Counted from the first letter of the whole stretch, positions 5,752 through 63,691 are shown. The stretch: 63,691 nucleotides of DNA, filler included, from an uncultured bacterium (GCA_964372275.1; 3 parts of 3 records of this genome joined end to end with filler, not necessarily neighbours in it), one strand, 5' to 3'. The notes: a model not told the origin generated them from the sequence alone. A program made the numbers and translations.

Positions 5752-7370
5752 TCCGCATCCCGCTTCGCTATGCGCGGCTTCGGGGACGGATCGCCTGGAA
5801 CGCGGTGCTCCGGTCGGGACTCCCGCGCTCGCTGGCGGGCGGTGGAGCGCTCCTGGCGATCGCCTCCTCGGTGCAGTTCGGCAGCCTGCTCGGCGCCGGA
5901 CTCGCGCGCTCGCGTGCCCAGGACCCGGCGCGATTCGCCTCCGAGCTTTCGATCCTGGTGGTGATGGTGCAGCTCGTCTTCGGCTTCGTGGCGATCGGAT
6001 CGATCTCGATCCGACTGTTCGATCCCCGCCGCGATCCCACCGCCGACCTCCTCGTCGCCCTGCCGATCTCCCGGCTCGACCGGTTCCTCATCCGACTCGG
6101 AGACGTCTCCGCCGTCCCGGCGTTTATCGTGGCGGGCGTGATCCTGCCGGCCCTCCTCGCCTCGGGGCTCCCTCCGGCGGCCGCCGCGCTCGCCGGCCTG
6201 CTCTCGTTCGCCGTCTGCCTCCAGCCCGTGCCGGCCTTGCTCGCGCTCTACTCCCTCGCCCTCCGCGTCGTTCCCCCCCGCTGGCTCCGAAACCGCTGGC
6301 TCGCGATGGCGGCGCTGACCGCGCTTTTCGCACCCGGCGTCCCGGTCCTGGCGTCGATCCTCCGCGCGTGGCACGCCGGCCGGATTGCGCCGGACTGGCT
6401 TCCGGGGGCATGGTTTGCCCACGCCGTCGGCTCGGCGGTGGAAGGCCGCCTCGCCGGTGCCGCCCTCCCGTCCCTCGCGACGGTCCTGCTGCTGGTCGCC
6501 TGGATCGCCGCCGCCTACGTCGCGTTCGACCCGGCGGCGATCGAGCGTTTCGACGGCGCGCTCGCCGGCCTCGACGAGGGGGGCCGACGGCCGCAGCGCG
6601 GATCGACGCGCCGCGCCGCCGCGCCGGTCGGTTCCGCCCTGACGAGGATCGAGCTACTCGGACTGCGCCGCGAACCCGCCTTGCAGATCACCTTCGCGGC
6701 GCTGTTCGCGTCGGGGGCGGCCGTTCTGCTCTTCGCCGAGCGGTCGCTCCTCCTGATGGCGGGCGGGGCCGTCGGCTTCCTCTCCGTCTACCTCGCCGCC
6801 TGCCTCGGCCTGGCCTCGTTCTCCGCCGAAGGGCGTGACCTGCCCGTCCTCCACCCCCTGCCGGTCACGGCCAGCGAGGTGCTGCGCGCCAAGTTCCGGG
6901 TGAACGCCTGGCTCCTCGCCGCCGCCGGCGCGATTGCCGGTGGTGCCATCGCGGTGAGCGCGTCCCCCGCCACTTCGGCACCGTGGCGGGTTCTCCCGGC
7001 GGCGGCCGCCGGCGCCGCTGCCGTCGTCCCCTTGAGCGCGCTCGTCACCGCCATGGCGGCGATCTTCCCCCGGCGCCTCGAAGCCGCCGGGCGGCGCGAG
7101 GTCAGCGTCCCCGCGATCGGCTTCTTCTCTGCGCTGGCCGGGCTCGCGCTCCTCTCGGCATTCGTCGCCGCCGCCGGTCCGGCGATCCTGGGGCCGTTCT
7201 ATCTATGGATCCCAGCGCTGCTACTCCTCGCCTGGACGACCGTCGCGCGCTCGCTCGTCCGTACGGCGACGCGGAACTTCTACCGACCCCGCGAAAGGCG
7301 CGCCGCCTCGGAGACCGCGGGGAGCGCGAGCGGATCGCGGTCGAACTCGAACCGGAGCCAACCGCGGTAG
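5748..7370 (+). CDS. ABC transporter permease (multi-TM)
   Basis: TTGA overlap with the ATPase; about 540 aa with many hydrophobic segments. Confidence 0.8.
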   Translation: MIRIPLRYARLRGRIAWNAVLRSGLPRSLAGGGALLAIASSVQFGSLLGAGLARSRAQDPARFASELSILVVMVQLVFGFVAIGSISIRLFDPRRDPTADLLVALPISRLDRFLIRLGDVSAVPAFIVAGVILPALLASGLPPAAAALAGLLSFAVCLQPVPALLALYSLALRVVPPRWLRNRWLAMAALTALFAPGVPVLASILRAWHAGRIAPDWLPGAWFAHAVGSAVEGRLAGAALPSLATVLLLVAWIAAAYVAFDPAAIERFDGALAGLDEGGRRPQRGSTRRAAAPVGSALTRIELLGLRREPALQITFAALFASGAAVLLFAERSLLLMAGGAVGFLSVYLAACLGLASFSAEGRDLPVLHPLPVTASEVLRAKFRVNAWLLAAAGAIAGGAIAVSASPATSAPWRVLPAAAAGAAAVVPLSALVTAMAAIFPRRLEAAGRREVSVPAIGFFSALAGLALLSAFVAAAGPAILGPFYLWIPALLLLAWTTVARSLVRTATRNFYRPRERRAASETAGSASGSRSNSNRSQPR

Positions 7371-49545: not shown

Positions 49546-50685
49546 ATGCATGTGGCGAGTCGCCGATACGCCGCGATCGTTGCGGTGCGCGTCAGTCGAG
49601 GTCGACACGCCGCGCTCCTCGCCGTGGGAATGAGCCTGCTGGCCGCCTGCCAGCCGGCCGGAGGATCGGCCCGGCTCCGCGCAGAGGTCGGCGTCACGGA
49701 GTCGGTCGAATCGGGCCGTGCGGATCCGCGAGTCGGGTTCGCGGCCGAGGCCGCGACGACCGAGGGCGGCGGTGGGCCGACCCTCGAAGGGAGTGACATC
49801 GTCTCGTTCACGCCGGACTCGATCCGGGTGCGTCTCCGCGGACTCTATTTCTGCGCCACCCTCGTCGACGTCCAGGGCAACCGCACCTGCGGGCCGGACC
49901 AGGAACAGATCTCGGTCCTGGAGGACCAGGAGATCGAGCTCGTCGACCAGGATCCGTTCGAGTCGCTCGCCGAGTTCGGCGCCGACGTCGGGAGCGGGAA
50001 GACCGGGGAGTTCGGCGGCGCGGTCCTGCTCTACGCCGTCGACGACACGAACACGTCGACCGTCCGGATCAACGGAACGGTTACGCTCTCCAGCGGATCG
50101 ACCTTCACCTTCACCGACCTCGACGTGCCGCTGGGGCTCACGGGGATCGGCGTCGATCTCGTGCCACCTCTCGTGGTCGAAGAGGGGAAGACGGCGGTGA
50201 TCCGCGGACTCTTCGACCCGGAGCATCTTCTCCATCTCCGGGAGACGGCGCCGACTCCCAACTGCGCGGCCTCCGGAGTCACGAACATCGGCGTCTGCTC
50301 CGAATCGTTTCCTCTCCTCCCGGTGGCGGGGGAGAACTCGCCGACGGTGGAGCGGTACGAAGTGGTGCTGGAGTCGGACGCGCTGGGGACCCAGGGGAAA
50401 TATCACCTGAAGATCTCGCTCGCCTTCGACTCCGCAGACAGCCTTCTTTCCGCGGACTGGCATCCGATCTACGCCGAGGGGTATCGGTTCCAGGGGGGCG
50501 GGTTTCATCCCTGCCGGCTCCACCTTCCGGACGTCGTCCAAACCGGAACGACCTACCGGCTGAAATCGGAAGACGTGTGCCCCAGCAGCACGCTCGTCTT
50601 TCCCGCATTCGAGCGCGATTCCCATTCCGGGACGCTCGTGTATGGGGGGACGGAGATCCCCTACGCCGCGACGAAGCGGCCGTAG
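49546..50685 (+). CDS. Hypothetical lipoprotein
   Basis: GGAGGT RBS; lipobox LAAC; beta-rich with paired Cys. Confidence 0.7.
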   Translation: MHVASRRYAAIVAVRVSRGRHAALLAVGMSLLAACQPAGGSARLRAEVGVTESVESGRADPRVGFAAEAATTEGGGGPTLEGSDIVSFTPDSIRVRLRGLYFCATLVDVQGNRTCGPDQEQISVLEDQEIELVDQDPFESLAEFGADVGSGKTGEFGGAVLLYAVDDTNTSTVRINGTVTLSSGSTFTFTDLDVPLGLTGIGVDLVPPLVVEEGKTAVIRGLFDPEHLLHLRETAPTPNCAASGVTNIGVCSESFPLLPVAGENSPTVERYEVVLESDALGTQGKYHLKISLAFDSADSLLSADWHPIYAEGYRFQGGGFHPCRLHLPDVVQTGTTYRLKSEDVCPSSTLVFPAFERDSHSGTLVYGGTEIPYAATKRP

Positions 50686-50755
50686 ACTCGAACGCCATTC
50701 GAACGTCGGGGAAGGAGGCGCCTGCCAGTCCGCTCGCGACGGTAATACTATTGGT

Positions 50756-50992
50756 ATGAAAACGGCGATCTCGCTGCCGGACGACCTCTTCGAGAGGGCG
50801 GAGCGTCTGGCGCGGCGATTGAATCGGTCTCGTAGCGAGCTGTACCGGGAAGCGGTCGCGGAGTACATCGCGCGCCGAAGCCCTGACGCCATCACCGACG
50901 CCTACGACCGGATCGCCGAACGGGTCGACCTGCGCGCGGATCCGTTCGTTTCTACGGCCGCCCGCCGTGCGCTTGAACGCACGGAATGGTGA
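50756..50992 (+). CDS. Ribbon-helix-helix antitoxin (MazE/ChpI-type)
   Basis: MKTAISLPDDLFERAERLARRLNRSRSELY...TEW; overlaps the toxin start. Confidence 0.9.
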   Translation: MKTAISLPDDLFERAERLARRLNRSRSELYREAVAEYIARRSPDAITDAYDRIAERVDLRADPFVSTAARRALERTEW

Positions 50993-51330
50993 TCGCGCAG
51001 GGTGACGTGTGCTGGGCGGACCTGCCGGACCCGGTCGGGTCGGGACCCGGCTCTCGCCGACCCGTCGTCGTCGTTCAGGGAGATGCGCTGAACAGAAGAC
51101 GGATCGCGACCGCGTTGTGCGTTCCGCTCACGAGCAACGTGGCGTGGGCGGCCGCGCCCGGAAATCTGCTGCTGACGGCGCGCGCCACCGGCCTCCCGAA
51201 AGACTCGGTGGCGAACGTCTCGCAGATCGTCGCCATCGAACGGTCCGTTCTGAGCGAGCGCACGGGCCGTCTCTCGCGCAACCAGATGCGCCTTCTCCTT
51301 GCGGGAATCGACGTCGTCCTGGGCCGATAG
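50986..51330 (+). CDS. mazF: PemK/MazF family endoribonuclease toxin
   Basis: QGDVCWADLPDPVGSGPGSRRPVVVVQ...PLTSN...GLPKDSVANVSQI. Confidence 0.92.
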   Translation: MVIAQGDVCWADLPDPVGSGPGSRRPVVVVQGDALNRRRIATALCVPLTSNVAWAAAPGNLLLTARATGLPKDSVANVSQIVAIERSVLSERTGRLSRNQMRLLLAGIDVVLGR

Positions 51331-51378
51331 ACGTGTAACCCTCCGCATCGCCCATCGCCGCCGGCGGGCGTCGTCCCC

Positions 51379-52365
51379 CTACTCGAAGATCACGTCGATG
51401 TCGTATCCGGACGAGAAGTTTACGAGTACCGGTCCGGTCGCCCCCGGCGCCTCGAAGGTGTGGATCCGGTACTTCAGGATCTGCATCGTGTCGACGATCT
51501 GGTAGGCGGTCGGCTCGAGGTACTGCATCGCCGAGGCCGGGATCGTCGCCTCGCCGTCGTCCTCGAACTTGCACAGGTAGACGAACGGCGTGCCGTCCTG
51601 GACCTCGTACTGCATCAGGAAGACGAACAGCGGAAGCCCGTCCTTCTCCGACTCCCACGCGAGCGGGATGTCCTGCGAGCGGTCGATCGTTCGCGGGCCG
51701 GTCCCGGCGGTCAGGTTCGCCGGCTCGGTGACCAGGATGTCGGGGGGACCGGGAAAGGTGGTGGAGAAGGCGCCCACCTGCGCGCCGGTACCGGCGAGAG
51801 TGTAGTCGGCGCCGCCGCCGACGAAGACGCCGGGCATCGCCTGCGCCAGGTAGAGCTGCAGGCCGCCGAGCGGAAGGAAGAAGAACGATCCCGTGCCGGA
51901 CGGGGAGGCGATCGAGACATCGCCCGCGGCCAGGGTGATCTGCCCGCTTCCGGAGATCGCGATCGACGCCCCGTAGCCGCCGCCGCAGGTATCGAGCTCC
52001 ATGTCGGGATAACCGCCGAACAGCGCCTCCCACGGCTCCATGAAGATCAGCGGCACCGGCTGCGCGTAGAACGATCCGCTCCCTCCGATCCCGCCCGGCG
52101 GGTCGTTCCCCTGGACCCGGATGTTGCCGAGAGAGAACCACCCGCCGAGCGTCTCGGGCGGCGCGCCGCCGCCGGGGGTGTCGTCATCGGGGGTCGGGTC
52201 GTCGCCGGTCGTGCCACCGTCGTCGTTCCCGCCGTCGTCGTCATCGTCCGCGGCGGGCGGTTCCGGGTCGGTCGTGATCCCTCCACCGACCACGTTGCCG
52301 CAACCGGCGGCGAGCGAGAGCAGGGACGCGAAGCCGAGAACGATCCAACGAGGATGGGCGCGCAT
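51379..52365 (-). CDS. Hypothetical lipoprotein with acidic linker
   Basis: GGAGG RBS, lipobox AAGC, D/G/P-rich linker, beta-rich body. Confidence 0.8.
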   Translation of the reverse strand: MRAHPRWIVLGFASLLSLAAGCGNVVGGGITTDPEPPAADDDDDGGNDDGGTTGDDPTPDDDTPGGGAPPETLGGWFSLGNIRVQGNDPPGGIGGSGSFYAQPVPLIFMEPWEALFGGYPDMELDTCGGGYGASIAISGSGQITLAAGDVSIASPSGTGSFFFLPLGGLQLYLAQAMPGVFVGGGADYTLAGTGAQVGAFSTTFPGPPDILVTEPANLTAGTGPRTIDRSQDIPLAWESEKDGLPLFVFLMQYEVQDGTPFVYLCKFEDDGEATIPASAMQYLEPTAYQIVDTMQILKYRIHTFEAPGATGPVLVNFSSGYDIDVIFE

Positions 52366-52403
52366 CGAACCTCCAAAAAGTCGGGCGTCCGAATGAACAG
52401 AGC

Positions 52404-52445
52404 GAATGAATATTCATTCTGAGGACGGCGAATGAATACTCATTC
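52404..52445. promoter_or_regulatory. Two palindromic operators GAATGA-N4-TCATTC (TetR-family-like)
   Basis: GAATGAATATTCATTC (52404-52419, perfect palindrome), GAATGAATACTCATTC (52430-52445), plus half site GAATGAA at 52391. Confidence 0.8.
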
Positions 52446-52473
52446 CGTTCTTGCCTGGGAAGAGGGATTCGCG

Positions 52474-53901
52474 TCAGCGCAGCCCGACGACCTGCGTGAG
52501 GAGTGCGTCACGCAGGTCACGGATCGCCGCCGCGGGATCGGAGGCGCTCGCGTCGAGCGCCAGACGGAGCACCGTTCCCCCTCGGCGCGTGATCGACGCA
52601 TCGGGGAGCGCCACGCCGCCCAGAGGGACGACGTACGACCGCCGGCGGGGATCGACCAGCGCCGACGGCTCGAGCTCGGCGACGAGGGAGACCGAGGCGA
52701 CGCCTCGGCGAATCGGGTCGGCCAGGAGCCTCTCCATCAGCCGGTGCTCCTCCCGGTCGGCGCGGTCGGCCTCCGGGGAGAGGAGATGGACCGTGACGCG
52801 GGCGCCGTCCCCGCCGAACAGATCGAGGAGGTCCTCCGCCACGCGCGCCGCGAACGCGTAGGCCAGGACGGACGCGCTCACCACGTGGCCCGCCTTCTTG
52901 AGGCGCAGCGGCGCCGGTTCGAGCACGACGGCGAGCGCGCGCCGTTTCCGATGGAGGACCCCCGAGTCGCGCACGTAGTAGAGGAGATCCCCTTCGGCCC
53001 ATCGCAACGCGAACAGGTCGACGTGCGGATCGGCGTCGCGCCACACGAGCTCCGACCGAACCAGGTTCTCGATCGATCCGCCGGTGGAGACCTCCTCCAG
53101 GCCGCCGGTCGGGTAGCTTCCCGCGTCGTGGAGCGCCGTCGAACTCTCCGGGCTCTCGACGCGCAGCCGCGTCCGCGCGAGGTCGACCGGGCCGGCCTCG
53201 GCGGCGAGCCGCCGCACCCGGCGCGCGATCAACCGCAGGTGCGGGTGGTCGAGCGCCTCCCAATGCGCGAGCTCGAACAGGTCTTCCTCGCGGAAGACGC
53301 CCGCGATCTCGATTCGCGACGCCTGGCGCCGCAGGAACGACGACAGGATGCGCAGGGCGCCGGGGGACGGCGTGTCGACCGTCGGCGGCGCGGTCTCGCC
53401 GAATCCGGCGAGGTCCCGCAGGTGGACGGGGTTGATCGAAGGCGACGCCTCGCAAGCCTCCCCCCGCGCGGGATCGAACAGGATCTCCAGCACCCGTTGG
53501 ATCCGCGCGTCGTGGAGCGCCGCCGGTCCCTCGACGATCGTCGCCGACGCGCGGCGAAAGCCGGCATCGCAACGCAGGGCGTTCAGGAACCGGTTCTCGT
53601 AGGCCAGTCGGATCGGTCGCTCCTCCTCCGACCATCGGTCGAGGCGCGAGACGGCGGCGAACGGGAACCGGTCGGCCAGGAGCAGCAGGTGTCCGACGTC
53701 GTGCACGGCGAAGAACGGGATTGCCGCCAGCCCGAACCCCTGGAGATGGCGGAACCAGGCCAGGGCCCGGTCGGCGGCGGCGATCCGATCCTCGAACGCC
53801 GCGCCCGAGACGGAGAGGAGTCCGAGCAACGCCTCGGGCAGCGAGTCCGGCGGAATCTCAGCGGAGGCGGGATCGGATCCGGAGTCGGTGTCGGTCGGCA
53901 T
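52474..53901 (-). CDS. Degenerate vWA-related partner of the MoxR ATPase (FtsH ternary system-like)
   Basis: IPFFAVHDVGHLL; DAGSYPTGGLEEVSTGGSIENLVRSEL...DLFALRWAEGDLLYYVRD; no intact DxSxS MIDAS seen; follows MoxR. Confidence 0.7.
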   Translation of the reverse strand: MPTDTDSGSDPASAEIPPDSLPEALLGLLSVSGAAFEDRIAAADRALAWFRHLQGFGLAAIPFFAVHDVGHLLLLADRFPFAAVSRLDRWSEEERPIRLAYENRFLNALRCDAGFRRASATIVEGPAALHDARIQRVLEILFDPARGEACEASPSINPVHLRDLAGFGETAPPTVDTPSPGALRILSSFLRRQASRIEIAGVFREEDLFELAHWEALDHPHLRLIARRVRRLAAEAGPVDLARTRLRVESPESSTALHDAGSYPTGGLEEVSTGGSIENLVRSELVWRDADPHVDLFALRWAEGDLLYYVRDSGVLHRKRRALAVVLEPAPLRLKKAGHVVSASVLAYAFAARVAEDLLDLFGGDGARVTVHLLSPEADRADREEHRLMERLLADPIRRGVASVSLVAELEPSALVDPRRRSYVVPLGGVALPDASITRRGGTVLRLALDASASDPAAAIRDLRDALLTQVVGLR

Positions 53902-53915
53902 GCGCGTGGCGCGGG

Positions 53916-54896
53916 TCAGCGCTCGAGCTTGAGGATGGCGTCGACCTTCGTCCGCACCGCCGCGAAGTCGGCGTCCCGGTCGCCGACGTGCCGCAGCAGC
54001 GTCAGGTCCTCGCGGCGCACCGCGCCGCCGTGAAGCAGGAAGGCCCGGGCGCGGAGCAGCCGGTAGAGCTTGATCACCTTCCGGTCGGAGACCTGGACCC
54101 GGTCCTCCTTCTCCAGGGTGCGGAGGATCGCCTTGAACACCTCGAAGACCTCCTCGGGGAACCAGCGCTTCCGGTCCTCGGGATCGACCATCTGGTGGTC
54201 GAGCCAGGCTTTGAGCTTGAGGAAGTCCTCGAGCGAGGCGAGTCCGGCCCACGGCCTCCGCCTGAACGTACGCATTCCTTCGTTGGCGAGGCCCTTGGCC
54301 ACCAGCTCGTCGAAGTGGCGGTCTTTCACCGGGTGGCTCTCGACCTTGAGCGGGAACCGATCGCGCAGCGCGGCCAGCTCGTCGAAATCGGGAACGCCGT
54401 TGGTCGCGGCGAACATCATCTTCATCCGCACCGGCACGGGGCGGCCGTCCTGGTAGTACTTCCGCTCGTTGATGAGGGTCAGCAGCGTGTTCAGGATCGC
54501 GGAGTTCGACTTGAAGATCTCGTCGAGGAAGACGACCTCGGCGGTCGGCATCTTCCCCTCCACCCGGCGCACGTACCGTCCGTCCTTCAGCTCGTTCAGG
54601 TCGATCGGACCGATGATCTCCGACGGCTCCGTGAACTTGGTCAGCATGTACTCGAAGTAGTCGGACTCCCCCAGACCCAGCGCCTCGCACCACCGGACCA
54701 CCAGGTCGCTCTTGGCGGTCCCGGGCCTTCCGACCAGCAGCAACGGCTCCTGCGCCAGCGTCGTGACCGCCATCAGCTCCAGGATCTCCGCCTTCTCGAC
54801 GTAGTAGGCGGCGAGCAGGGTCCGCGCGCGGTTGACGCGCTCGCGCAGCGACTCCACCTGTCCCTTGAGCTCCTCCGGTTTCCAGCTTCCGCTCAT
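53916..54896 (-). CDS. MoxR/RavA-family AAA+ ATPase
   Basis: GRPGTAKS, LTKFTEPSEIIGPID, FLDEIFKSNSAILNTLL, AATN, ALRDRF, SDRK. Confidence 0.93.
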   Translation of the reverse strand: MSGSWKPEELKGQVESLRERVNRARTLLAAYYVEKAEILELMAVTTLAQEPLLLVGRPGTAKSDLVVRWCEALGLGESDYFEYMLTKFTEPSEIIGPIDLNELKDGRYVRRVEGKMPTAEVVFLDEIFKSNSAILNTLLTLINERKYYQDGRPVPVRMKMMFAATNGVPDFDELAALRDRFPLKVESHPVKDRHFDELVAKGLANEGMRTFRRRPWAGLASLEDFLKLKAWLDHQMVDPEDRKRWFPEEVFEVFKAILRTLEKEDRVQVSDRKVIKLYRLLRARAFLLHGGAVRREDLTLLRHVGDRDADFAAVRTKVDAILKLER

Positions 54897-57800
54897 CTAC
54901 ACCACCTTTTCGTTGGCGATCCGCTCGCGCAGGACCCGCTCCTCCGCCCCCAGGTAGCGCGCGTACTCCGCCCGCACCCGAGACGCGGGGGAGACCACCT
55001 CGTCGAGGACCAGTCCCAGCAGTTCCGAACCGGAATCGCCGACGCTCAACGAGCGCTCGGCGAGGAACAGGTCGAGCACGCGGTCGACGAGGTGGAGCCG
55101 GCGGGGGCCGCCGACCTCGGAGAGGCTGTGCACGATCTCCCGCAGGAGGTCGTACCGGTCGCGCCCCGGCGTCTTTCCGGTCGCTTCGAGGACGCGCTCG
55201 AGCGACTCCAGGCCCGCCTCCTCGCCGCCGACGCGGATCCACCCGCGGGCGCACTTGGCAAGCGCCTGGTAGCGGTAGAAGGGGGTCCAGTAGCGGGAGG
55301 CGGAATCGCCGGCGGCACCCGAGGCCAGCGCCTCCACCCGGCGCAGGATCGCCTTGGCCTCCTCGCCGCCGCCGTGGGCCACGGCGTGGTCGACGCACAG
55401 TCCCAGCACCTCGAAGAGGAAGGTGACGTCGCCGGTCGAGGCGAGCGAGGTCGTCTCCACCAGGTCGACGACGGTCCCCATCACCGCGATCGCCGCCGCG
55501 CGGTCGCCGAGGCGCGCCGCGGCGTCGACACACGCCGTCAGCACCTCGCTCCGGAAGTACGGACCGATTCCGGGCCGTCCCGCCCGGTCGACGATCTGCT
55601 GCACGAGCGCGAGGCCAGGGCCGACGCGTCCGAACTGCGGGACGATCGAGGTCAGACGGCGCACCGCGCGGCGGCGATCGTCGTCGCTCTGGAGCGCCCA
55701 TGCGCGGTCGACGGCCAGGGCGAGGTCCTCCATCCCGGCGTCGGCGGCACGCGCGGCGGCGAGCCCCCGGATGGCGGCCGCCCAGGCGAGCAACTCGGGG
55801 AAGCGGGGATCGGCGGCGCGCATCCGCTCGGCGAGCTGCAGAGCGAACGCCTCGCCGCCGATCGCCACCGCCCCTTCGACCAAGCGCGCGTCGGTGTCGC
55901 GAAGATCGCGGAGGTGGGGGCGGACGGCCGCCAGGAGCCGCTCGGTCGTTTCGCGCGGCAGCTCGCGTGGGCCCACGAACGCCGACAACGCCGCCATCGC
56001 GGCGCCGAAGTAGTGCGCGTCGGCCTGCACGGCCGGCGAGGAGGCGATCGCCAGCGCCATTTCGCGCGCGCGCGGGGCGGCCCCGATCCGCTGGAGCGCC
56101 GGCGCGCAGCGGGCGAGGGAGAGCGCGCCCCTGCGCGGATCGGCCGCCTCGATCGAGGCAAGTGCGTCGGCAAGGACCGTCGCGTCGGCCGGGACGTCGC
56201 TCGCCGCGATCAGGTCGAGGATCGCCGCCAGGGTGCGCGCCCGCTCGTCGTCGTTGGCAAGCCCCGTCACCGCCTCGAAGGCGCGGCGAATCGGCGCGTC
56301 GGCGACCGGATCGCGGAGCCTAAGCAGCGCCGCGCCAGCCGCGGCCAGCACCCGCGCCGCGGAGGCGCTTCGGCCCTGCCCGACGCCGGCGATCGCCTCG
56401 GCGGACAGGCGGCGGGCGCGGTCGACGTCGTCGATCTCCGCCCAGCGGCGCGCCAGTAGCGCGAGGCCCGAGAACCGGACCCGCACGTCGTCGAGCGCCG
56501 AGATCCTCCCGGTGAGCGCGTCCATCGTGCGCCGGAGGTCCCCCCCCTCGGTCGTCCCCGACCCGTGAGCCGTCCTTTCCGCCAGTCGCGCGCGCACGAA
56601 CTCCGCGCGGTCGAGGGGCTTTAGTCCATGCTGGTTCAGGTCGGCGAGCAGCTCCTCGCGCTGCCGCTCGAGCTCGATCTCGTCGCCGGAGCGGGCCAGC
56701 ACGGCGCTCCACACCAACCAGCGGCTCTTCTTGCGGAGACGCTCCGCGCGTCCGGCCGCGCGCGCGGCGGCGTGGAGCGACGCGAGCTCGGCGGGATCGA
56801 TCGGTGCCCCCTCTTCGAGACGGAGCGCGCGGAGGCGCAGCGAGCGCAGGTCGCCGCCGGAGGAGGGGTCGGGGCGTGGCGCGCGCGCGGTCGCCGCCTC
56901 GAGCAGCTCGATCGAACGCCGGCGGGCGTCGGCGTCGAGGGAGCGATCGAGCCAGCGGGCGTTTTCGTAGCCGTCGACGGCGCCGTCGACATCGCCGCGA
57001 AGGGCGCGAAGGTCGGCGAGAGAGAGCCAGTCGGTCGGGGAGCCGGGGGGAGAGAGGGAGATGCGGGATTCGAGGAGGGATTCGGGGGATGGGGCGGGGG
57101 CGGGTTCGGGTCGGGACGGATCGGGCGGAACCGGATCGGGTCGGCCCGGATCGGTTCGGTCCGGATCCGTTCGGATCCGATCGGTGTCGGTAACCGTTGC
57201 CGATTCCGATCCGATCCGATCGGTACCGGTTACCGGTGCGGATCCGATCCGATCGGTCTCGGTCGTGGGATTCGGAGTGGGAGAGGGGACCGAAGGAGAA
57301 GGAGAGGAAAGGGGTCGCTCGGCGAGGCCGGCGATTGGGCCGGGGTCGAAGATCGTGGAGGCGATCAGGGGGGGGAGGGTGGGGGACTGGGTCGTGACGA
57401 TGTAGTCGACGTAGGTGGTGAGGGGGCGGAACGACGATTCGGGCAGGCGGAGGGCGCGCACGCCGTCGGCGGCGGGTTCGACGATGACGAGCTCGCCGGG
57501 GGAAAGGGAGAATGCCTCGGCGATGCGGTCCCGTCGGAGGGGGGGCTCGAGTGCGCGGTCGATCGGGAGGAAAAGTCCGGGGAGGCCGCCGTGGCTCCGG
57601 AAGCCGCGGCGGGTGAAGTCGATCCAGCCGCGGCCGCGTCCGGTGATCACCTCGCGCAGCGCGGCCACGGGACGCGTCCCGCCGTCGGGGGGCGCGGGGG
57701 CGAAGAAGGCGACGCCCAAGTGTTTGAGGTCGGGCTCGGGGACCATCGCCAGCAGCCGCTCGACGGCGGGAAGGTCGTGCTCCTCGAGGAGCCACAGCTC

Positions 57801-58649
57801 CGGCTCGACGCGGTCGGGGGCGGAAGCCAGGCGGAGCTTGACGGTGAACCGCGGCGCCGGCTCGGCGGGGGACCAGCGGACGGCGCTGAGGTCCTCGGGG
57901 GAGACGGCGACGGCATCGTAGACGTCCCGCCAGTCGGGACCGGGAACGCGCTGGAGCGAGCCGTCCTCGTCGAAGAGCGCGACCTCCCCGCCGGCGACGC
58001 GCAGCCGCGCGGCGAGCGGATGCGACCATCCGAGGCGGACATAGACGTTCGGGGCGGCCGCGGCGAAGATCGGCAGCGCGTCGGATTCGCGCGTCCAGCG
58101 CTCGACGAGGTACCACGGCGGCGCGTCGATGCGCACCAGCACCGCGCCGGCGCCGCGCGCCCCGAGCGGCGCCCAACGGAGGCGGTCGGCGCCGAGCGCG
58201 AAACAGTCGCGCACCAGACGCGCGAACGAGCCGCCGTCGCCGCACCAGGCGAGGAGGTGGCCCCCGGGGAGGGGATCGGGCGCCTCGGCCCGACGCGTCG
58301 GACGCACGGCGTCGAGGAGTCGCTCGACGCGGGTCGACGCCTCGATCGTGAAGAGAAGCTCCGTCCCGCGCTCGGCGATCGCGCGCCGGCCGCCCCCCTC
58401 GAGGCGGACCCGTACCCGCCTTGCCCCGGCGAGCGAGGCGGGGGGCGCACCCGAGAGCTCCAGCAACAGGGGGCGATCTCCGCGAGGGTCCACCGCCTCG
58501 TGCACCGCCGCGGCCGAGCTCCACGGCGAGGCCGTCTCGCCGTCGACGCGCCCGCCGTCGGCGTCGATCCCGGGAAGGAGGCTCGCCGCGAGGTCTTCGA
58601 CGCCGTCGAAGACGAACAGGTCGACGGTGGCGACGCGCGCGCCGGTCAC
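54897..58649 (-). CDS. 1250-aa protein: conserved N-terminal region, Pro-rich linker, TPR/alpha-solenoid C-terminus
   Basis: PPWYLVERW, VYVRLGWSHPL, EPELWLL, LFLP...LEPPLRRD, FRPLTTYVDY; GTGA-coupled upstream and abuts the MoxR start. Confidence 0.8.
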   Translation of the reverse strand: MTGARVATVDLFVFDGVEDLAASLLPGIDADGGRVDGETASPWSSAAAVHEAVDPRGDRPLLLELSGAPPASLAGARRVRVRLEGGGRRAIAERGTELLFTIEASTRVERLLDAVRPTRRAEAPDPLPGGHLLAWCGDGGSFARLVRDCFALGADRLRWAPLGARGAGAVLVRIDAPPWYLVERWTRESDALPIFAAAAPNVYVRLGWSHPLAARLRVAGGEVALFDEDGSLQRVPGPDWRDVYDAVAVSPEDLSAVRWSPAEPAPRFTVKLRLASAPDRVEPELWLLEEHDLPAVERLLAMVPEPDLKHLGVAFFAPAPPDGGTRPVAALREVITGRGRGWIDFTRRGFRSHGGLPGLFLPIDRALEPPLRRDRIAEAFSLSPGELVIVEPAADGVRALRLPESSFRPLTTYVDYIVTTQSPTLPPLIASTIFDPGPIAGLAERPLSSPSPSVPSPTPNPTTETDRIGSAPVTGTDRIGSESATVTDTDRIRTDPDRTDPGRPDPVPPDPSRPEPAPAPSPESLLESRISLSPPGSPTDWLSLADLRALRGDVDGAVDGYENARWLDRSLDADARRRSIELLEAATARAPRPDPSSGGDLRSLRLRALRLEEGAPIDPAELASLHAAARAAGRAERLRKKSRWLVWSAVLARSGDEIELERQREELLADLNQHGLKPLDRAEFVRARLAERTAHGSGTTEGGDLRRTMDALTGRISALDDVRVRFSGLALLARRWAEIDDVDRARRLSAEAIAGVGQGRSASAARVLAAAGAALLRLRDPVADAPIRRAFEAVTGLANDDERARTLAAILDLIAASDVPADATVLADALASIEAADPRRGALSLARCAPALQRIGAAPRAREMALAIASSPAVQADAHYFGAAMAALSAFVGPRELPRETTERLLAAVRPHLRDLRDTDARLVEGAVAIGGEAFALQLAERMRAADPRFPELLAWAAAIRGLAAARAADAGMEDLALAVDRAWALQSDDDRRRAVRRLTSIVPQFGRVGPGLALVQQIVDRAGRPGIGPYFRSEVLTACVDAAARLGDRAAAIAVMGTVVDLVETTSLASTGDVTFLFEVLGLCVDHAVAHGGGEEAKAILRRVEALASGAAGDSASRYWTPFYRYQALAKCARGWIRVGGEEAGLESLERVLEATGKTPGRDRYDLLREIVHSLSEVGGPRRLHLVDRVLDLFLAERSLSVGDSGSELLGLVLDEVVSPASRVRAEYARYLGAEERVLRERIANEKVV
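57106..57262. repeat. CGGAT pentamer repeat element embedded in frame in the 1250-aa CDS
   Basis: Minus strand CGGATCGGATCGGAA...GTTACCGA...GATCGGATCCGA..CGGATCCGG matches 48361-48417; encodes TDRIGS/TDRIRTDP repeats. Confidence 0.8.
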
Positions 58650-58912
58650 GTCTTCACCGGCTCCTTCTCCCCCGCCCCGGCCGCCGTCCCGCCGGCGGGC
58701 GGGGCCTTCTTCCCGGTCCGCACCCGCTCCACCTTCACCCCGGCGGCCTCCTCCGCGGTGAGCGTGCCGGCGCCGACCAGCCGCTCGACGATCTCGCGAT
58801 GCCGCCGCTCGTGTTCCACCGGGAGGCGGTCGTCCTCCCCTTCGTACTCGACGACGATCTCCTTCTCTCCGGTGGTGGTGTCGAAGCGGAATCGGACGGT
58901 GATGTCGGGCAT
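58646..58912 (-). CDS. Small 88-aa conserved-looking protein of the FtsH/MoxR operon
   Basis: MPDITVRFRFDTTTGEKEIVVEYEGEDDRLPVEHERRHREIVERLVG; GAGG RBS. Confidence 0.8.
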   Translation of the reverse strand: MPDITVRFRFDTTTGEKEIVVEYEGEDDRLPVEHERRHREIVERLVGAGTLTAEEAAGVKVERVRTGKKAPPAGGTAAGAGEKEPVKT

Positions 58913-58926
58913 GGCCGTCGACGCCT

Positions 58927-61074
58927 CTACGTCCCGACGCCGGCCGCCTTGCGCGGCGTCCGCGACGCGAGGATCGCCAGCGCCTCGTCGCGGGTGAGCG
59001 ACTTCTTCTCCAGCAGGCGCGCCGCCATCTCGTCCAGCAGGGCGCCGTTCTCCTCGAGCAGGCGCTGCACCCGCGAGTTCTGCTCGCGCAACAGCTGGTC
59101 GATCGCCTCGTCGATGCGCCGAGCGCGTTCGGGGGAGGGGGGGCGCGGAGCCCCTTCGCGGGCGGGGGCGAAGGAGCGCAGGTCGACGCCGTCCCCCATC
59201 CCCAGCTCCTCGATCATCAGCCGCGCGATCTCGGAGGCGCGGCGCAGGTCGTCCCAGGCTCCGATCGAGACGTCGGCGCAACGCAGCCGTTCGGCGATCC
59301 GCCCGCCGAGGCAGACGGCGAGGTCGTCGAGCAGGTCGGCGCGGGTGGTGACGTAGCGGTTCTTCCGCACCTCCTGCAGCACGTAGCCGAGGCGGTCCTC
59401 CTCCTCGGTCTCGATCGTCACCTTCTCGAAGGGGGAGGCGTTGGGCAGGAGCAGGGCGCAGAGCGCGTGCCCGGTCTCGTGGATGGCGATCGTCCGCTCC
59501 TCCTCCGGGGTAAGCGTCCGTTTCGCGCCGCGGGTCTTCATCGCCTTGTCGATCTCGGCCGCGTCGATCACGAACTTCTCCCGGCCGCCGCGACGGATCT
59601 CCTCCCGCTTCAGCGCGCGGAACAGCGCCTGCAGGTGGTCGCCGGTCCAGCGCCCGCCGAGTTCCGGGTCGACCGCGCCGCCGGTCCGCCGCACCAGGTG
59701 CTCCAGGCCCAAGTCGTCGATGTTGAGCCGGAACCGGTCGCGGTAGATGCGGGCGATCTCCCGCCGGTCGTCCTCGACCGGCCAGGGGATGTCGATCACG
59801 AACTCGAATCGCCCCGGCCGGAGCAGCGCCGGATCGAGCGACTCGACGAAGTTGGTCGTCCCCACCACGAACACCAGCTCCTCGCGGCGGAAGCCGTCCA
59901 TCTCGGTCAGGAGTTGGTTGACGATCGAGTGGTCGACGCCGTTGCCTCCTTGGTAGAGACCCCGTGAGCTGGCGATCGAGTCGAGCTCGTCGAAGACGAT
60001 CACCGCCGGCGCCGCGCGGCGCGCCCGCGCGAAGATGCGCCGAAGGTTCTCCTCGCTTTCGCCGTACCACTTCGATTTGAGCTCCGGACCGCTGACGACG
60101 ATGCAGGTGGCGTCGATCGCCGTGGCGAGCGCCTTGGCGAAGAAGGTCTTGCCGGTCCCCGGCGGCCCGGAGAAGACGATCCCGCGGGGGAGGAGCCCCT
60201 CGATCGCCTTGACCTCCTCCTCTCCGAGCCCGGCGTCCTTGCGGCGGAGCAGGGAGAGGATCTCGCTCTCCAGCTTCTCCTTCACCGCGGCATAGCCGCC
60301 GATGTCGGCGCGGAGGTCGACCCGCGGCACCTCCATGTCGCCGGTCAGCGTCATCTCGCGGATCTCGCGCAGGAGCTCCACCCGCGAAGAGGGGTGCGCC
60401 GGGTCGAAGTCGAGCCGGTTCTCGAGCTGCGCCAGGATCCGCCGCAGCTTGATCACGTTCACCCCGGACACGAACTTGTAGAGCGAATAGGGATCGAACT
60501 CGTCGACCCCCAGCTTGCGGGCCTCCTGCCGGCGCACCAGCTTCGGCAGCGACTCGCGCGGGATCCCGATCAGGAGCCGCCGGGCGGTGAAGAGGTCCTC
60601 GACCACCTTCGGGATCTCGAACGACGGGTCCTTGAATCCGAGGACGACCGCGTCCGGATTCTCGTAGAAGCGGGCGATCGCCTCGCGCGCCTCCATCGAC
60701 AGCCCGGACTTGGTGGTGGTGGTGAGGATGTCGAGGTGCGGGACGACGACGACCGTCCCCCGCTCGGCGGTGAGGACGGCGTCGCCCAGCTCCAGCAGGA
60801 CATTGGAGAGGACCGATCCGCCGCGCTCCCCCTCCTTCGGGCGGCCGGCCAGGAGTTTCACCGTCTTGGGCTCGCCGCGCGCGGCGTCCTTCAGCCGATC
60901 GCGGAGCTTCCGGTAGAGGAACTGGACGATCTGTTTGTCGCACTCGACCAGGACCGAAAGCCCGCGCCGCAGCTTGGCTTCGACCCAGTCGAGCGAGTCG
61001 CCGTAGGCGATCTCGACGGCGTCGTCGGGTTCGAGCTCCTCCGGAAGGGAGGCGAGGCGAACGCTGCCCGGCAT
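58927..61074 (-). CDS. Soluble FtsH-like protease (degenerate AAA-like + active AAA+ + M41 Zn-peptidase)
   Basis: GPPGTGKT, VIVFDELD, TTNF...LDPALLRPGRFE, HETGH, GGRIAE, GAWDD; no TM segments; ATG 61074 after GGAG (alternative 61134). Confidence 0.9.
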   Translation of the reverse strand: MPGSVRLASLPEELEPDDAVEIAYGDSLDWVEAKLRRGLSVLVECDKQIVQFLYRKLRDRLKDAARGEPKTVKLLAGRPKEGERGGSVLSNVLLELGDAVLTAERGTVVVVPHLDILTTTTKSGLSMEAREAIARFYENPDAVVLGFKDPSFEIPKVVEDLFTARRLLIGIPRESLPKLVRRQEARKLGVDEFDPYSLYKFVSGVNVIKLRRILAQLENRLDFDPAHPSSRVELLREIREMTLTGDMEVPRVDLRADIGGYAAVKEKLESEILSLLRRKDAGLGEEEVKAIEGLLPRGIVFSGPPGTGKTFFAKALATAIDATCIVVSGPELKSKWYGESEENLRRIFARARRAAPAVIVFDELDSIASSRGLYQGGNGVDHSIVNQLLTEMDGFRREELVFVVGTTNFVESLDPALLRPGRFEFVIDIPWPVEDDRREIARIYRDRFRLNIDDLGLEHLVRRTGGAVDPELGGRWTGDHLQALFRALKREEIRRGGREKFVIDAAEIDKAMKTRGAKRTLTPEEERTIAIHETGHALCALLLPNASPFEKVTIETEEEDRLGYVLQEVRKNRYVTTRADLLDDLAVCLGGRIAERLRCADVSIGAWDDLRRASEIARLMIEELGMGDGVDLRSFAPAREGAPRPPSPERARRIDEAIDQLLREQNSRVQRLLEENGALLDEMAARLLEKKSLTRDEALAILASRTPRKAAGVGT

Positions 61075-61250
61075 TTTTCTCCGCCCGTTGGGCTTGGGTA
61101 GGGGGACCTTCCCGAACCCCTCGGACTCTACCATGGCGTTGCGGGCCGGGCGCGCCCGCCCCACGGGACGCGCAGTCACCAGCCACCGTTCCGTATCACG
61201 GCATGCGAGCTGTGGTTCGGGATGGTGCGAAACTTGTAGGGCCGCGCGCC

Positions 61251-61454
61251 ATGACGGCGGGTACCTTCTGGCGCTCGAGGCCGCCCCGAGGCCAAGCCTC
61301 GGTCGAGTACGTCCTCGTCCTCGGCGCGGTCGTGGTGGCGGTGACCGCCGCGGCCCTGATCTTCGTGCCCGCGTTCCGTCACGGAGTGGAGCGGATGCAG
61401 GCCCGGGGGTGGATCAACTGGAACCTCCCCATGGACTGGATGCCATCCTCCTAG
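61251..61454 (+). CDS. Flp/Tad-like pilin with class III signal peptide
   Basis: RG/QASVEYVLVLGAVVVAV prepilin motif (E at +5, Y at +6). Confidence 0.7.
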   Translation: MTAGTFWRSRPPRGQASVEYVLVLGAVVVAVTAAALIFVPAFRHGVERMQARGWINWNLPMDWMPSS

Positions 61455-61569
61455 CGGAGAAGTCGAACCTCGCCCGGGCCGGACGCGGCCATCGGGGACT
61501 CCAAGCCCTTTGTTTCCACGGGCGAATCGCGCTAGTGTCGGCCTCTTGCGGCTGTCTCTCGGAGGGTCG

Positions 61570-63426
61570 ATGTCCGCCAGCGCATCCAGCGTCCCCACAC
61601 GGAATCGGGAAGAGCTCGAGGCCGTCGTCATCCGTTTCGCCGGCGACTCCGGCGACGGAATGCAACTAACGGGTTCGGAGTTTACCAAGACCGCGGCGCT
61701 CGTCGGCAACGACCTGGCCACCTTCCCCGACTTCCCGGCCGAGATCCGCGCGCCGGTCGGCACCACCTTCGGCGTCTCCGGGTTCCAGATCCACTTCTCC
61801 TCCCACGAGATCTTCACCCCGGGCGACCGGCCGGACGTGCTGGTGGCGATGAACCCGGCGGCGCTCACGACCAATCTGGCCGACCTGAAGCGGGGAGGGC
61901 TCCTGGTGGTGAACACCGGCGCCTTCACTGACGGCAACCTCACCAAGGCAGGATACAAGGCGAATCCACTCGAGGACGGCTCGCTCGACGCCTACCGGTT
62001 GCTGAAGATCGACATCTCGAAGCTCACGGCCGAAGCGACGGCCCCCTCGGCCGCCTCGGCGCGGGAGAAGGCGCGCTGCAAGAACTTCTGGACCCTGGGA
62101 TTGATGTACTGGATGTACGGCCGCCCGATCGAGCCGACCGAGAAGTGGATCGACGTGAAGTTCGCAAAGGTCCCCGAGGTCGCCGACGCCGACAAGCGGG
62201 CGCTCCGCGCCGGGTTCAACTACGGCGAGACGGCGGAGGTCGCGCCGTTCTACTACAGCGTTCCCAAGGCGAAGCTTCCGGCCGGGAAGTACCGGAACAT
62301 CACCGGCAACCAGGCGACGAGCTGGGGGATCGTGGCGGCGGCGCAGCTGTCGGGACTGAAGGTCCTGCTCGGCAGCTACCCGATCACGCCGGCCTCGGAC
62401 ATCCTCCACGAACTGTCGGCCCTCAAGCGCTTCGGGGTGCTGACCTTCCAGGCGGAGGACGAGATCGCGGCGATCGGCTCGGCGATCGGCGCCTCCTACG
62501 CCGGTGGCCTGGGCTTCACCACCTCCTCCGGTCCGGGGATCGCGCTCAAGACGGAAATGATCGGCTACGCGATCGTCACCGAGTTGCCGCTGGTGATCAT
62601 CGACGTGCAGCGCGGCGGGCCGTCGACGGGCCTTCCGACCAAGACCGAGCAGAGCGACCTGCTGCAGGCGGTCTACGGCCGCAACGGCGATTCGCCGTTG
62701 CCGGTGCTGGCGGCGGCGACGAGCGCCGAGTGCTTCCACATGGTGATCGAAGCGGCCCGCATCGCGGTGACGTACATGACGCCGGTGATCCTGCTGACCG
62801 ACGGTTACCTGGCGAACGGTTCCGAGCCGTGGCGGATCCCCGACATCGCATCGCTCCCCAAGATCGACGTCACGTTCCGGACCGAGACGGACGGATTCCA
62901 CCCCTTCCTGCGCGATCCCAAGACGCTGTCGCGGGTCTGGGCGGTCCCGGGGACGCCGGGGCTGATGCACCGGATCGGCGGCATCGAGAAGGACTACGAC
63001 ACCGGAAACATCAGCTACGCCCCGGCGAACCACGAGAAGATGACCAAGACCCGGGCGCAGAAGACGGCGAACGTGGCCGACGACGTCCCCCTGGCGGCGC
63101 TCGAGGTCGGCGAGGAGAGCGGCGACCTGCTGGTGGTCGGATGGGGCTCGACCCTCGGTGCCGTCTCTACCGCCGTGCGCAACTGCCGCGCGAGCGGCAT
63201 GAAGATCTCTCACCTGCACCTGCGCTACATGAACCCGCTGCAGAAGAACGTCGGGCAGATCGTCTCGCGGTTCAAGCGCGTGCTCGTCCCGGAGATGAAC
63301 AATGGCCACCTGGTGAAGATCCTCCGCAGCGAGTTCCTCTGCCCGGCGATCGGCTACAACAAGATCCAGGGAAAACCGTTCATGGTCTCCGAGGTGGAGT
63401 CGAGGATCCGCGAGGTGATGGGGTGA
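61570..63426 (+). CDS. korA: 2-oxoacid:ferredoxin oxidoreductase alpha subunit
   Basis: RFAGDSGDGMQLTG, SYPITPAS, QAEDEIAA, QRGGPSTGLPTKTEQSD, GWGST. Confidence 0.95.
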   Translation: MSASASSVPTRNREELEAVVIRFAGDSGDGMQLTGSEFTKTAALVGNDLATFPDFPAEIRAPVGTTFGVSGFQIHFSSHEIFTPGDRPDVLVAMNPAALTTNLADLKRGGLLVVNTGAFTDGNLTKAGYKANPLEDGSLDAYRLLKIDISKLTAEATAPSAASAREKARCKNFWTLGLMYWMYGRPIEPTEKWIDVKFAKVPEVADADKRALRAGFNYGETAEVAPFYYSVPKAKLPAGKYRNITGNQATSWGIVAAAQLSGLKVLLGSYPITPASDILHELSALKRFGVLTFQAEDEIAAIGSAIGASYAGGLGFTTSSGPGIALKTEMIGYAIVTELPLVIIDVQRGGPSTGLPTKTEQSDLLQAVYGRNGDSPLPVLAAATSAECFHMVIEAARIAVTYMTPVILLTDGYLANGSEPWRIPDIASLPKIDVTFRTETDGFHPFLRDPKTLSRVWAVPGTPGLMHRIGGIEKDYDTGNISYAPANHEKMTKTRAQKTANVADDVPLAALEVGEESGDLLVVGWGSTLGAVSTAVRNCRASGMKISHLHLRYMNPLQKNVGQIVSRFKRVLVPEMNNGHLVKILRSEFLCPAIGYNKIQGKPFMVSEVESRIREVMG

Positions 63427-63433
63427 AAAGACC

Positions 63434-63691
<258 letters not shown>

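Follow-up and report, generated by a model that had tools for sequence, protein, structure and literature searches.

An operon of five genes, very probably a member of the predicted FtsH-type class of MoxR-vWA ternary systems, occupies positions 61074..52474 on the minus strand of a 63,691-nucleotide stretch of DNA from an uncultured bacterium (GCA_964372275.1; three records joined end to end with filler, here called the window). In order, it encodes an FtsH-like AAA+/M41 protease of 715 residues (61074..58927), an 88-residue fvmX3-analog protein, here X3 (58912..58646), a 1250-residue fvmX7 protein with a GTG start (58649..54897), a MoxR protein of 326 residues (54896..53916) and a vWA-like protein of 475 residues, ivWA (53901..52474). 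The initial annotation of this DNA had described five co-oriented, tightly coupled genes, and all its coordinates and junctions are borne out by the sequence: read directly, the FtsH-like gene ends in TAG 14 nucleotides ahead of the ATG of the X3 gene, the X3 and fvmX7 genes share a GTGA stop/start overlap, the TAG of the fvmX7 gene abuts the ATG of the MoxR gene, and the TGA of the latter precedes the ATG of the ivWA gene by 14 nucleotides. The reading frames of all five genes are intact. The window has a G+C content of ~70%, and third-position G+C of 0.86–0.94 (stop-to-stop filter) supports coding in the MoxR, fvmX7 and FtsH-like frames; the ivWA and X3 genes were not resolved by this filter, and their coding status rests on Pfam matches. 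Because close homologues of the 1250-residue protein begin about five residues after the GTG at 58649, the true start of its gene could be a few codons downstream, which would leave the tight packing unaffected. Promoter and terminator scans of both operon ends gave no signal above shuffled sequence, and an Rfam scan of positions 50000–63691 gave no match.

All five proteins belong to Pfam families, and the search for FtsH-ternary families and Peptidase_M41 that had been suggested as a check returned fvmX3-analog, fvmX7, bpMoxR, ivWA, ivWA-helical_N, AAA and Peptidase_M41, all above cut-off. The FtsH-type MoxR-vWA ternary system emerged from comparative genomics (Kaur, Burroughs, Iyer, Aravind 2020, eLife 9:e52696, PMC7159879) as one of four predicted MoxR-vWA conflict-system classes of multicellular bacteria. 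In that paper the class is defined by a MoxR often carrying a GxxxTAKS P-loop (a variant named for the FtsH and beta-propeller systems), a strongly diverged vWA in which the metal-binding aspartates may be missing, and an FtsH-type component, whose N-terminal domain is called a catalytically inactive second AAA+ copy. Its simple subtype has a vWA with an N-terminal all-alpha domain, and its effectors are NEFF1 or a pair of radical S-adenosylmethionine (SAM) enzyme and peptide, the peptide being proposed to act once modified by the enzyme; the main text contains neither 'M41' nor 'fvmX' (PMC7159879). The window cassette shares with this subtype the five core families, the gene order, the GxxxTAKS P-loop and a helical-N vWA without the metal-ion-dependent adhesion site (MIDAS), and its relatives come from the same lineages, Myxococcota and Planctomycetota; unlike the subtype, it lacks radical-SAM, fvmX6 and fvmX5 genes. 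That the cassette belongs to the predicted kind is highly probable, since the Pfam families match and the gene order recurs in Myxococcota, in Planctomycetota and in a metagenomic locus (L081, discussed below), and several features that identify the kind are present, namely a GxxxTAKS MoxR, a divergent helical-N ivWA, an active-type FtsH AAA+ module and an fvmX3-analog/fvmX7 neighbourhood. The layout had already been recognised as that of the FtsH-ternary systems, and both the Pfam families and synteny agree. The full reading, that the operon is a genuine chromosomal, minimal FtsH-type MoxR-vWA ternary system with a role in biological conflict and with the order of events proposed below, is one to which we give a probability of roughly 0.55.

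The first protein of the operon had been described as an AAA+/M41 protease devoid of transmembrane segments. It matches Pfam AAA (1.7e-39, residues 299–430) and Peptidase_M41 (3.9e-37, residues 520–698), and no membrane helix was found in it, the highest 19-residue Kyte-Doolittle mean being 1.49 and lying within the AAA core; together with the alignment of its zinc-binding motif these results uphold the description. Solved FtsH chains match it across AAA and M41 at ~211 bits; the AAA module taken alone finds its best solved-structure match in the D2 domain of p97/Cdc48 (155.8 bits) and carries a Cdc48-like pore loop, KWYGESE. The HETGH zinc-binding and catalytic motif of the M41 domain (residues 532–536; 59467..59481, minus strand) aligns with HEAGH of solved FtsH chains, and Asp609 (in WDDL), further downstream, aligns residue by residue with the Asp of their ND(I/F) motif, the third zinc ligand of FtsH. 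Across 29 aligned sequences of the family, Walker A, the Walker B D-E, the pore-loop Trp and the Arg of the second region of homology are kept in all, and HExxH with the third-ligand Asp in 28, so unfoldase and zinc-protease activity are both predicted to persist in the family. Like housekeeping FtsH (TIGR01241), the protein has a classical-clade AAA module followed by M41, with HExxH and the third-ligand Asp aligned. Unlike housekeeping FtsH, it has a family-specific cytosolic domain of ~255 residues (60310..61074, minus strand) in place of the transmembrane/periplasmic N-terminus, defined in a 25-sequence alignment by 35 invariant columns and by the motifs LVECDK, LPHLDLLTT and LGFKDPSF. Against the NCBIfam FtsH_fam equivalog model (TIGR01241) it scores 264.4 bits, below the cut-off of 600, and on this measure it is not the housekeeping FtsH.

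Three modules make up the 1250-residue protein: an alpha/beta fvmX7 region (approximately residues 1–440), a linker rich in P, T and D (~445–520) and an alpha-solenoid (~520–1230). The fvmX7 family of Pfam (PF20005) matches residues 114–418 at 2.9e-27. A model of residues 1–450 (m3dab676cd786), built from a 52-row alignment, has a mean predicted local distance difference test score (pLDDT) of 83.6 and a predicted template modelling score (pTM) of 0.75, and contains several small alpha/beta domains. A Foldseek search with this model against solved structures returned nothing at E ≤ 1e-3, and a search of the ESM Atlas with the same residues gave no usable match. In a wide VIA-align comparison the best score, Z 4.9, was obtained by ferredoxin-like/ACT-type domains for residues 125–217, and residues 9–119 aligned with the MecA C-domain (3pxi_a; Z 4.8, 80 residues aligned, root-mean-square deviation 3.4) and with YpbH (3jto_A; Z 4.7, 77 aligned). 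The likeness of this segment to the ClpC adaptors MecA and YpbH is only a lead, since the Z scores do not reach the level at which kinship can be told from commonplace arrangements. The fvmX7 module is thus modelled with confidence, and the solved structures offer no clear relative of it.

The TPR/HEAT-like alpha-solenoid half (54960..57089, minus strand; model m62aad4f9df8e, with blocks mostly at pLDDT 70–90) resembles only generic TPR/HEAT/ARM scaffolds in Foldseek (Ctr9, Ski3, UNC-45 and importin-beta, at template modelling scores of 0.1–0.2). It had been put forward as a variable half; its solenoid nature is supported by the model and by Foldseek, but only its middle, at about residues 700–1000, is strongly divergent, and close homologues conserve the solenoid well. 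The protein is homologous throughout to 41 distant family members (the hidden Markov model, HMM, spans positions 6–1084), identity to them being 8–11% at residues 701–1000 versus 26% at fvmX7 residues 111–440, and all 43 sequences compared retain the solenoid residues W644, D656 and G675. The stretch least conserved among close homologues is the linker, which is rich in TDRIGS and PDP units and encoded by imperfect tandem repeats of 15, 33 and 39 nucleotides (57106–57257); a strong GC skew extends over 56500–58000, around these repeats. A word-based search of 5.8 billion clusters yielded eight full-length homologues (50–54% identity) and one fragment, and an exhaustive search of 1.84 billion representatives with residues 1–450 yielded 551 at E ≤ 1e-3, of which 392 reached E ≤ 1e-10; almost all are 1000–1300 residues long with an N-terminal fvmX7 region. 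Among these, the window's own fvmX7 subfamily comprises a single representative, at 56% identity, the next standing at 38%. Two patterns derived from the alignment of the 1250-residue protein gave 52 pattern matches in species-representative contigs, none of which was confirmed, and the window subfamily was not found there.

The two remaining proteins form the MoxR-vWA pair. The MoxR protein matches bpMoxR (3.8e-57), AAA_5 and AAA_lid_8, and its P-loop GRPGTAKS (residues 56–63) and Walker B DE (residues 125–126) include the residues G56, P58–S63, D125 and E126 that are invariant in 25 sequences. It is the best conserved of the five proteins, with 3837 relatives at E ≤ 1e-3 among 8000 candidates scored. 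Its score against the RavA model (NCBIfam NF010054) is 141.4 bits, far from the cut-off of 681, and its 326 residues compare with 498 model positions; by this comparison it is not RavA. The downstream protein matches ivWA (2.2e-23; 83.2 bits, cut-off 35; residues 264–399) and ivWA-helical_N (1e-8, residues 41–130), and the MIDAS motif DxSxS is absent from it and from all 36 aligned members, in agreement with its earlier description as a MIDAS-less vWA-like protein. A strongly conserved block, YPxGG...RGxxENLxxSELxY...DLFDxRF..ELLxYxRD, lies just ahead of the first vWA strand. A sequence and profile search of the Protein Data Bank (PDB) gave no meaningful match, and it is by the Pfam family that the domain is predicted to be of vWA type. 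As in RavA-ViaA, CbbQ-CbbO and NorQ-NorD, the MoxR gene directly precedes a vWA-type gene and its product combines AAA_5 with AAA_lid_8. Unlike RavA-ViaA, the window MoxR lacks the RavA C-terminal domains, the vWA lacks MIDAS, and the pair is set within a five-gene cassette that includes a protease.

The conservation of this arrangement was assessed by scanning species representatives with the MoxR alignment, which produced at least 600 pattern matches (575 of 600 confirmed). The best 80 loci were examined and are no random sample, having been picked by likeness to the window MoxR; partner genes in them were found by tblastn, blastp clustering and home-made HMMs. They come from Myxococcota (Nannocystis, Enhygromyxa, Archangium, Polyangia) and Planctomycetota (Gemmataceae, Pirellulaceae). 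An fvmX7 gene adjoins MoxR in 43 of the 60 loci with at least 3.6 kb upstream. Where at least 7 kb upstream is available (53 loci), 38 have fvmX7 and 25 of these also the FtsH-like gene, which occurs in no locus that lacks fvmX7; the 15 without fvmX7 are other MoxR systems. All five genes occur in 12 of 47 fully flanked loci, every one colinear with the window; these 12 belong to the 25 loci that combine fvmX7 and the FtsH-like gene. Co-occurrence in other genomes had been named as a check on the initial annotation, and the five genes do stand in the same order in other Myxococcota and Planctomycetota. HMM detection of ivWA is probably incomplete, several Gemmataceae loci lacking an HMM match. 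Seven loci of Planctomycetota/Gemmataceae type (L016, L021, L028, L038, L041, L047, L060) have the FtsH-like, X3, fvmX7 and MoxR genes in order and no ivWA by HMM, and in L028 and L038 the gene after MoxR lies on the other strand; in these seven the partner may be too divergent, encoded elsewhere or dispensable.

The usual layout in these loci comprises eight genes, with a small radical SAM (Fer4_12), fvmX6 and fvmX5 ahead of the FtsH-like, X3, fvmX7, MoxR and ivWA genes. Pfam confirmed the radical SAM and fvmX5 in each of three loci tested, and fvmX6 clearly in one (6.3e-67), marginally in a second (26.7 bits, cut-off 27) and not in the third; the gene at the fvmX6 position of L010 was not confirmed. 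Because this confirmation is mixed, 'X6' assignments rest partly on position. Among the 20 protease loci whose upstream flank measures at least 2.8 kb, fvmX5 is found in 17, fvmX5 or a gene at the X6 position in 18, and the radical SAM in 12. In contrast to most relatives, the 63.7-kb window contains no homologue of the radical SAM, fvmX6 or fvmX5 anywhere (tblastn, E ≤ 1e-3), and the operon could therefore be viewed as a non-functional remnant of an eight-gene system that has lost its effector module. Such decay is highly improbable, given that purifying selection on the minimal form is indicated by five intact frames, by high third-position G+C in the three resolved frames, by catalytic residues that are all kept, by the absence of the module from L016 and L047 as well, and by the persistence of the five-gene form in L081 at 52–80% identity. 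L081 (17.7 kb) is one of three loci found in a metagenome scan, the others being L083, a more distant locus of the eight-gene type, and L082, a fragment. It carries all five genes in the window order, and no radical-SAM, X6 or X5 gene lies in the 2 kb upstream of its cassette, so the five-gene form is conserved in the window's own subfamily.

Some loci show insertions within the cassette. The X3 and fvmX7 genes, overlapping in the window, are separated in L081 by a copper type II monooxygenase gene on the opposite strand (4523–5764, minus; 413 residues; Cu2_monooxygen 3.9e-9, Cu2_monoox_C 1e-9), and in L083 a NadA-like gene of the quinolinate synthetase family (4139–5593, plus; 4.3e-30) lies between the FtsH-like and X3 genes.

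The smallest protein, X3, matches fvmX3-analog (PF20002, 2.6e-19) and fvmX3 (PF19999, 8e-7), and PF20002 is matched by all 32 members of its family, which span two phyla, measure 85–102 residues and share 27–57% identity with the window copy. Its neighbours in the ESM Atlas are likewise PF20002 clusters of Myxococcota and Planctomycetota. A conserved N-terminal part of ~65 residues is followed by a variable, polar, low-complexity tail. The motif EHExxH (E33-H34-E35-x-x-H38; 58799..58816, minus strand) is invariant in 32 of 32 sequences, in which D28, L30, L45 and R63 are the other invariant columns. No member matched a zincin family of Pfam at E ≤ 1, and no invariant acidic or His ligand was seen downstream, the invariant acids D28 and E33 lying upstream. 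The best PDB sequence matches are engineered or ankyrin repeat proteins at E 0.16–0.79, taken as chance, and hhalign against the FtsH-like protein gave a non-significant probability of 7%. A search for PF19999 in a Nannocystis genome (G001) and 14 controls found no match in any of them and is hence uninformative. Judged from its invariance, EHExxH is a strong functional signal, and it may reflect metal binding, catalysis or mimicry. The X3 gene invariably follows the protease gene, or precedes fvmX7, with no other gene between. It stays with the protease gene in split clusters (L058, L069, L070, L079) and with fvmX7 in loci that have no protease gene nearby (L037, L040, L080). This fits a go-between of protease and fvmX7, a matter of gene position and not of binding; a complex prediction of X3 with residues 1–260 of the FtsH-like protein and residues 1–450 of the fvmX7 protein scored 0.00 and, made without controls, gives no verdict.

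The same features of X3 can be read in terms of tagging or peptide maturation, whereby X3 would be the substrate of a processing, modifying or conjugating activity (that of the radical-SAM, fvmX6 and fvmX5 products in relatives) and its disordered tail would feed targets to the protease in a Pup-like manner. Such a role would suit the conserved N-terminal part with its variable disordered tail, the constant proximity to protease or fvmX7, and the frequent presence of fvmX5 (17/20) and a small radical SAM (12/20) at protease loci; a Gly occurs within the last three residues of 26 of the 32 members (our count), and a radical-SAM-modified peptide effector is what Kaur et al. propose for this subtype (PMC7159879). 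Yet the window and L081 copies lack the terminal Gly (ending in ...PVKT and ...GSKS, respectively), no ligase or deamidase domain was recognised by Pfam, and both loci lack the radical-SAM, fvmX6 and fvmX5 genes, so that the five-gene form must work without modification. We give tagging only a slim chance.

On the reading that we prefer, of a minimal ternary system acting in conflict, the 1250-residue solenoid protein would serve as sensor and scaffold and also as the client on which MoxR, encoded by the abutting gene, and the vWA adaptor act, the divergent middle of the solenoid binding a trigger or client. MoxR and ivWA would remodel this protein at the cost of ATP and so constitute an on/off gate, which would be coupled to the soluble protease, probably via the small X3 sitting between. 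The protease, as the only destructive enzyme in the form without radical SAM, would be the likely executor and might degrade proteins of the cell or of an invader, or else a component of the system that keeps it inactive. The proposed sequence of steps, from sensor to gate to protease, is offered as a tentative sketch whose correctness is doubtful. Less probable still is a more specific version, an immune switch with the protease as effector and with no toxin, nuclease or second messenger, in which X3 would be a mini-zincin or a metal-dependent plug or adaptor coupling the fvmX7 sensor-scaffold to the Cdc48-like/M41 protease, and MoxR/ivWA would license assembly; we regard it as unlikely.

What is new here is the minimal five-gene form, the family-wide intact protease, the invariant EHExxH of X3 and the confident fvmX7 model without a clear solved relative. 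Being conserved in a second organism, the five-gene version is the smallest unit likely to be functional and would for that reason be the most practical construct for heterologous tests; it also points to the soluble AAA/M41 protease as executor, and the invariant HExxH in a partner of only ~88 residues is a new mutational target. Should a role in immunity prove true, regulated cytosolic proteolysis by an FtsH/Cdc48-like machine would join the known defence mechanisms.

A conflict or defence role as such falls a little short of an even chance. The accessory nature of the system is supported by its patchy distribution, fvmX7 being present in 23 of the 201 Myxococcota genomes sampled and absent from all 14 control genomes; tblastn searches of a plasmid collection and a phage collection with fvmX7 found no match, and flanking genes vary from locus to locus. 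Support for a conflict reading comes from Esr, a related MoxR-vWA-beta-propeller pathway of Actinomycetota reported as required for defence against epibionts, in which surface beta-propeller sensors, a kinase/phosphatase pair and FHA proteins drive Esx secretion (bioRxiv 10.64898/2026.09.08.750141). Like Esr, which its authors place among the Aravind ternary systems, the window cassette ties a MoxR-vWA pair to a large divergent sensor; unlike Esr, it has no beta-propeller, kinase/phosphatase or FHA genes, and the term 'FtsH' is absent from the Esr text. No toxin or nuclease domain was found in any of the five proteins by Pfam, PADLOC or NCBIfam searches, as the initial annotation had anticipated in recognising neither a nuclease nor another effector domain. 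Nor was a recognisable effector gene for the cassette found by Pfam or tblastn, the coverage of NEFF1 by Pfam not being known to us.

Several observations weigh against the reading that we prefer. In PADLOC-DB v2 only the AAA core of the protease is matched (IetA, TRIP13; 6.4e-24 and weaker), the other four operon proteins giving no match. Full-text literature searches found no experimental work on FtsH-type ternary systems, which earlier had been thought to be experimentally uncharacterised. The 'inactive AAA+ copy' that helps to define the class is unconfirmed, the N-terminal domain of the FtsH-like protein having no PDB sequence match even in a profile search; compared with the AAA module of the same protein it gave an hhalign probability of 0.2%. 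Thirteen of the 38 fvmX7 loci show no FtsH-like gene within 7–10 kb upstream, and the protease may therefore not be obligatory. The window is an ordinary housekeeping chromosome and not a defence island. The molybdenum-cofactor gene MoaA, which lies beside the cassette in the window, also adjoins it in L081 (downstream, on the opposite strand), so that the position of the cassette appears inherited, and this shared neighbour fits stable vertical inheritance. Finally, every MoxR-vWA pair of known function is, to our knowledge, a maturation or activase chaperone (RavA-ViaA, CbbQ-CbbO, NorQ-NorD, CoxD-CoxE).

These points lend themselves to the main competing explanation, a chaperone-protease machine for maturation or quality control of one client without any conflict role, in which the solenoid would hold a client for MoxR and vWA to remodel or load, and the protease would clear failed or inhibitory intermediates. 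The chaperone function of the characterised pairs would argue for it, as would the lack of a toxin domain, the MoaA neighbour shared with L081, the even conservation of close homologues (which show no hypervariable patch), and a housekeeping context rich in Fe-S and molybdenum-cofactor genes (IscA-like protein, MoaA, 2-oxoacid:ferredoxin oxidoreductase). It accords poorly with the patchy distribution noted above, with flanks that differ among loci and so display no constant client gene, and with an ivWA that lacks the MIDAS site by which known adaptors grip clients. On balance we consider a maturation machine rather unlikely; if it were true, a published prediction would be corrected.

The fvmX7-MoxR loci without an FtsH-like gene in 7–10 kb are L014, L033, L037, L040, L042, L043, L044, L057, L062, L066, L074, L075 and L080, and an ivWA gene was found in seven of the 13.

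The near neighbours of the cassette in the window include, besides MoaA, the IscA-like protein and the 2-oxoacid:ferredoxin oxidoreductase, a phosphofructokinase and an NDH-2; elsewhere the window encodes a histidine kinase, an ABC1 kinase, S41, M50 and M23 peptidases, an acyl-CoA-type ligase, an aminotransferase, an epimerase and FAD oxidoreductases. The nearby MoaA was considered as the radical-SAM enzyme of the system and rejected, in view of its Mob_synth_C domain and of the opposite-strand MoaA that is found in L081 too. Among the best 120 matches of a phosphofructokinase search, all eight that carry an organism name are metagenome-assembled genomes of Myxococcota or 'Deltaproteobacteria' (63–67% identity), which makes an uncultured myxobacterium the probable host. 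Close to the cassette, genes of conflict type are limited to an overlapping pair on the plus strand (50642..51330) encoding a ribbon-helix-helix antitoxin (6.3e-8) and a PemK/MazF toxin (1.8e-21); lying 1.14 kb from the ivWA gene, it corresponds to the MazEF pair that had been noted at about 1.1 kb.

Directly beyond the ivWA gene, also on the minus strand, lies a gene for a lipoprotein of 328 residues (51379–52365) with an LAAGC lipobox and an acidic, Gly-rich linker. It has no Pfam family, and tblastn found no relative in any of the 80 loci; being a lipoprotein gene without such relatives and with palindromic, operator-like sites of its own, it was rejected as a member of the operon. These sites, GAATGAATATTCATTC (a perfect palindrome) and GAATGAGTATTCATTC, are 16 bp each and occupy 52404–52445 on the minus strand, in the intergenic region bounded by the ivWA stop and the lipoprotein gene. 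With a spacing of 10 bp (26 bp from start to start), they closely precede the lipoprotein gene and are the only two in the window, compared with 0.01 expected by shuffling. The pair looks like a candidate tandem operator for a dimeric repressor, and may resemble Fur-family boxes. At the other end, divergent from the protease gene, an open reading frame on the plus strand (61203–61454) encodes 83 residues, and its product contains GQASVEYVLVLGAVVVAV, a segment that may resemble Flp-type pilins in their G/xxxxEY processing site and hydrophobic stem.

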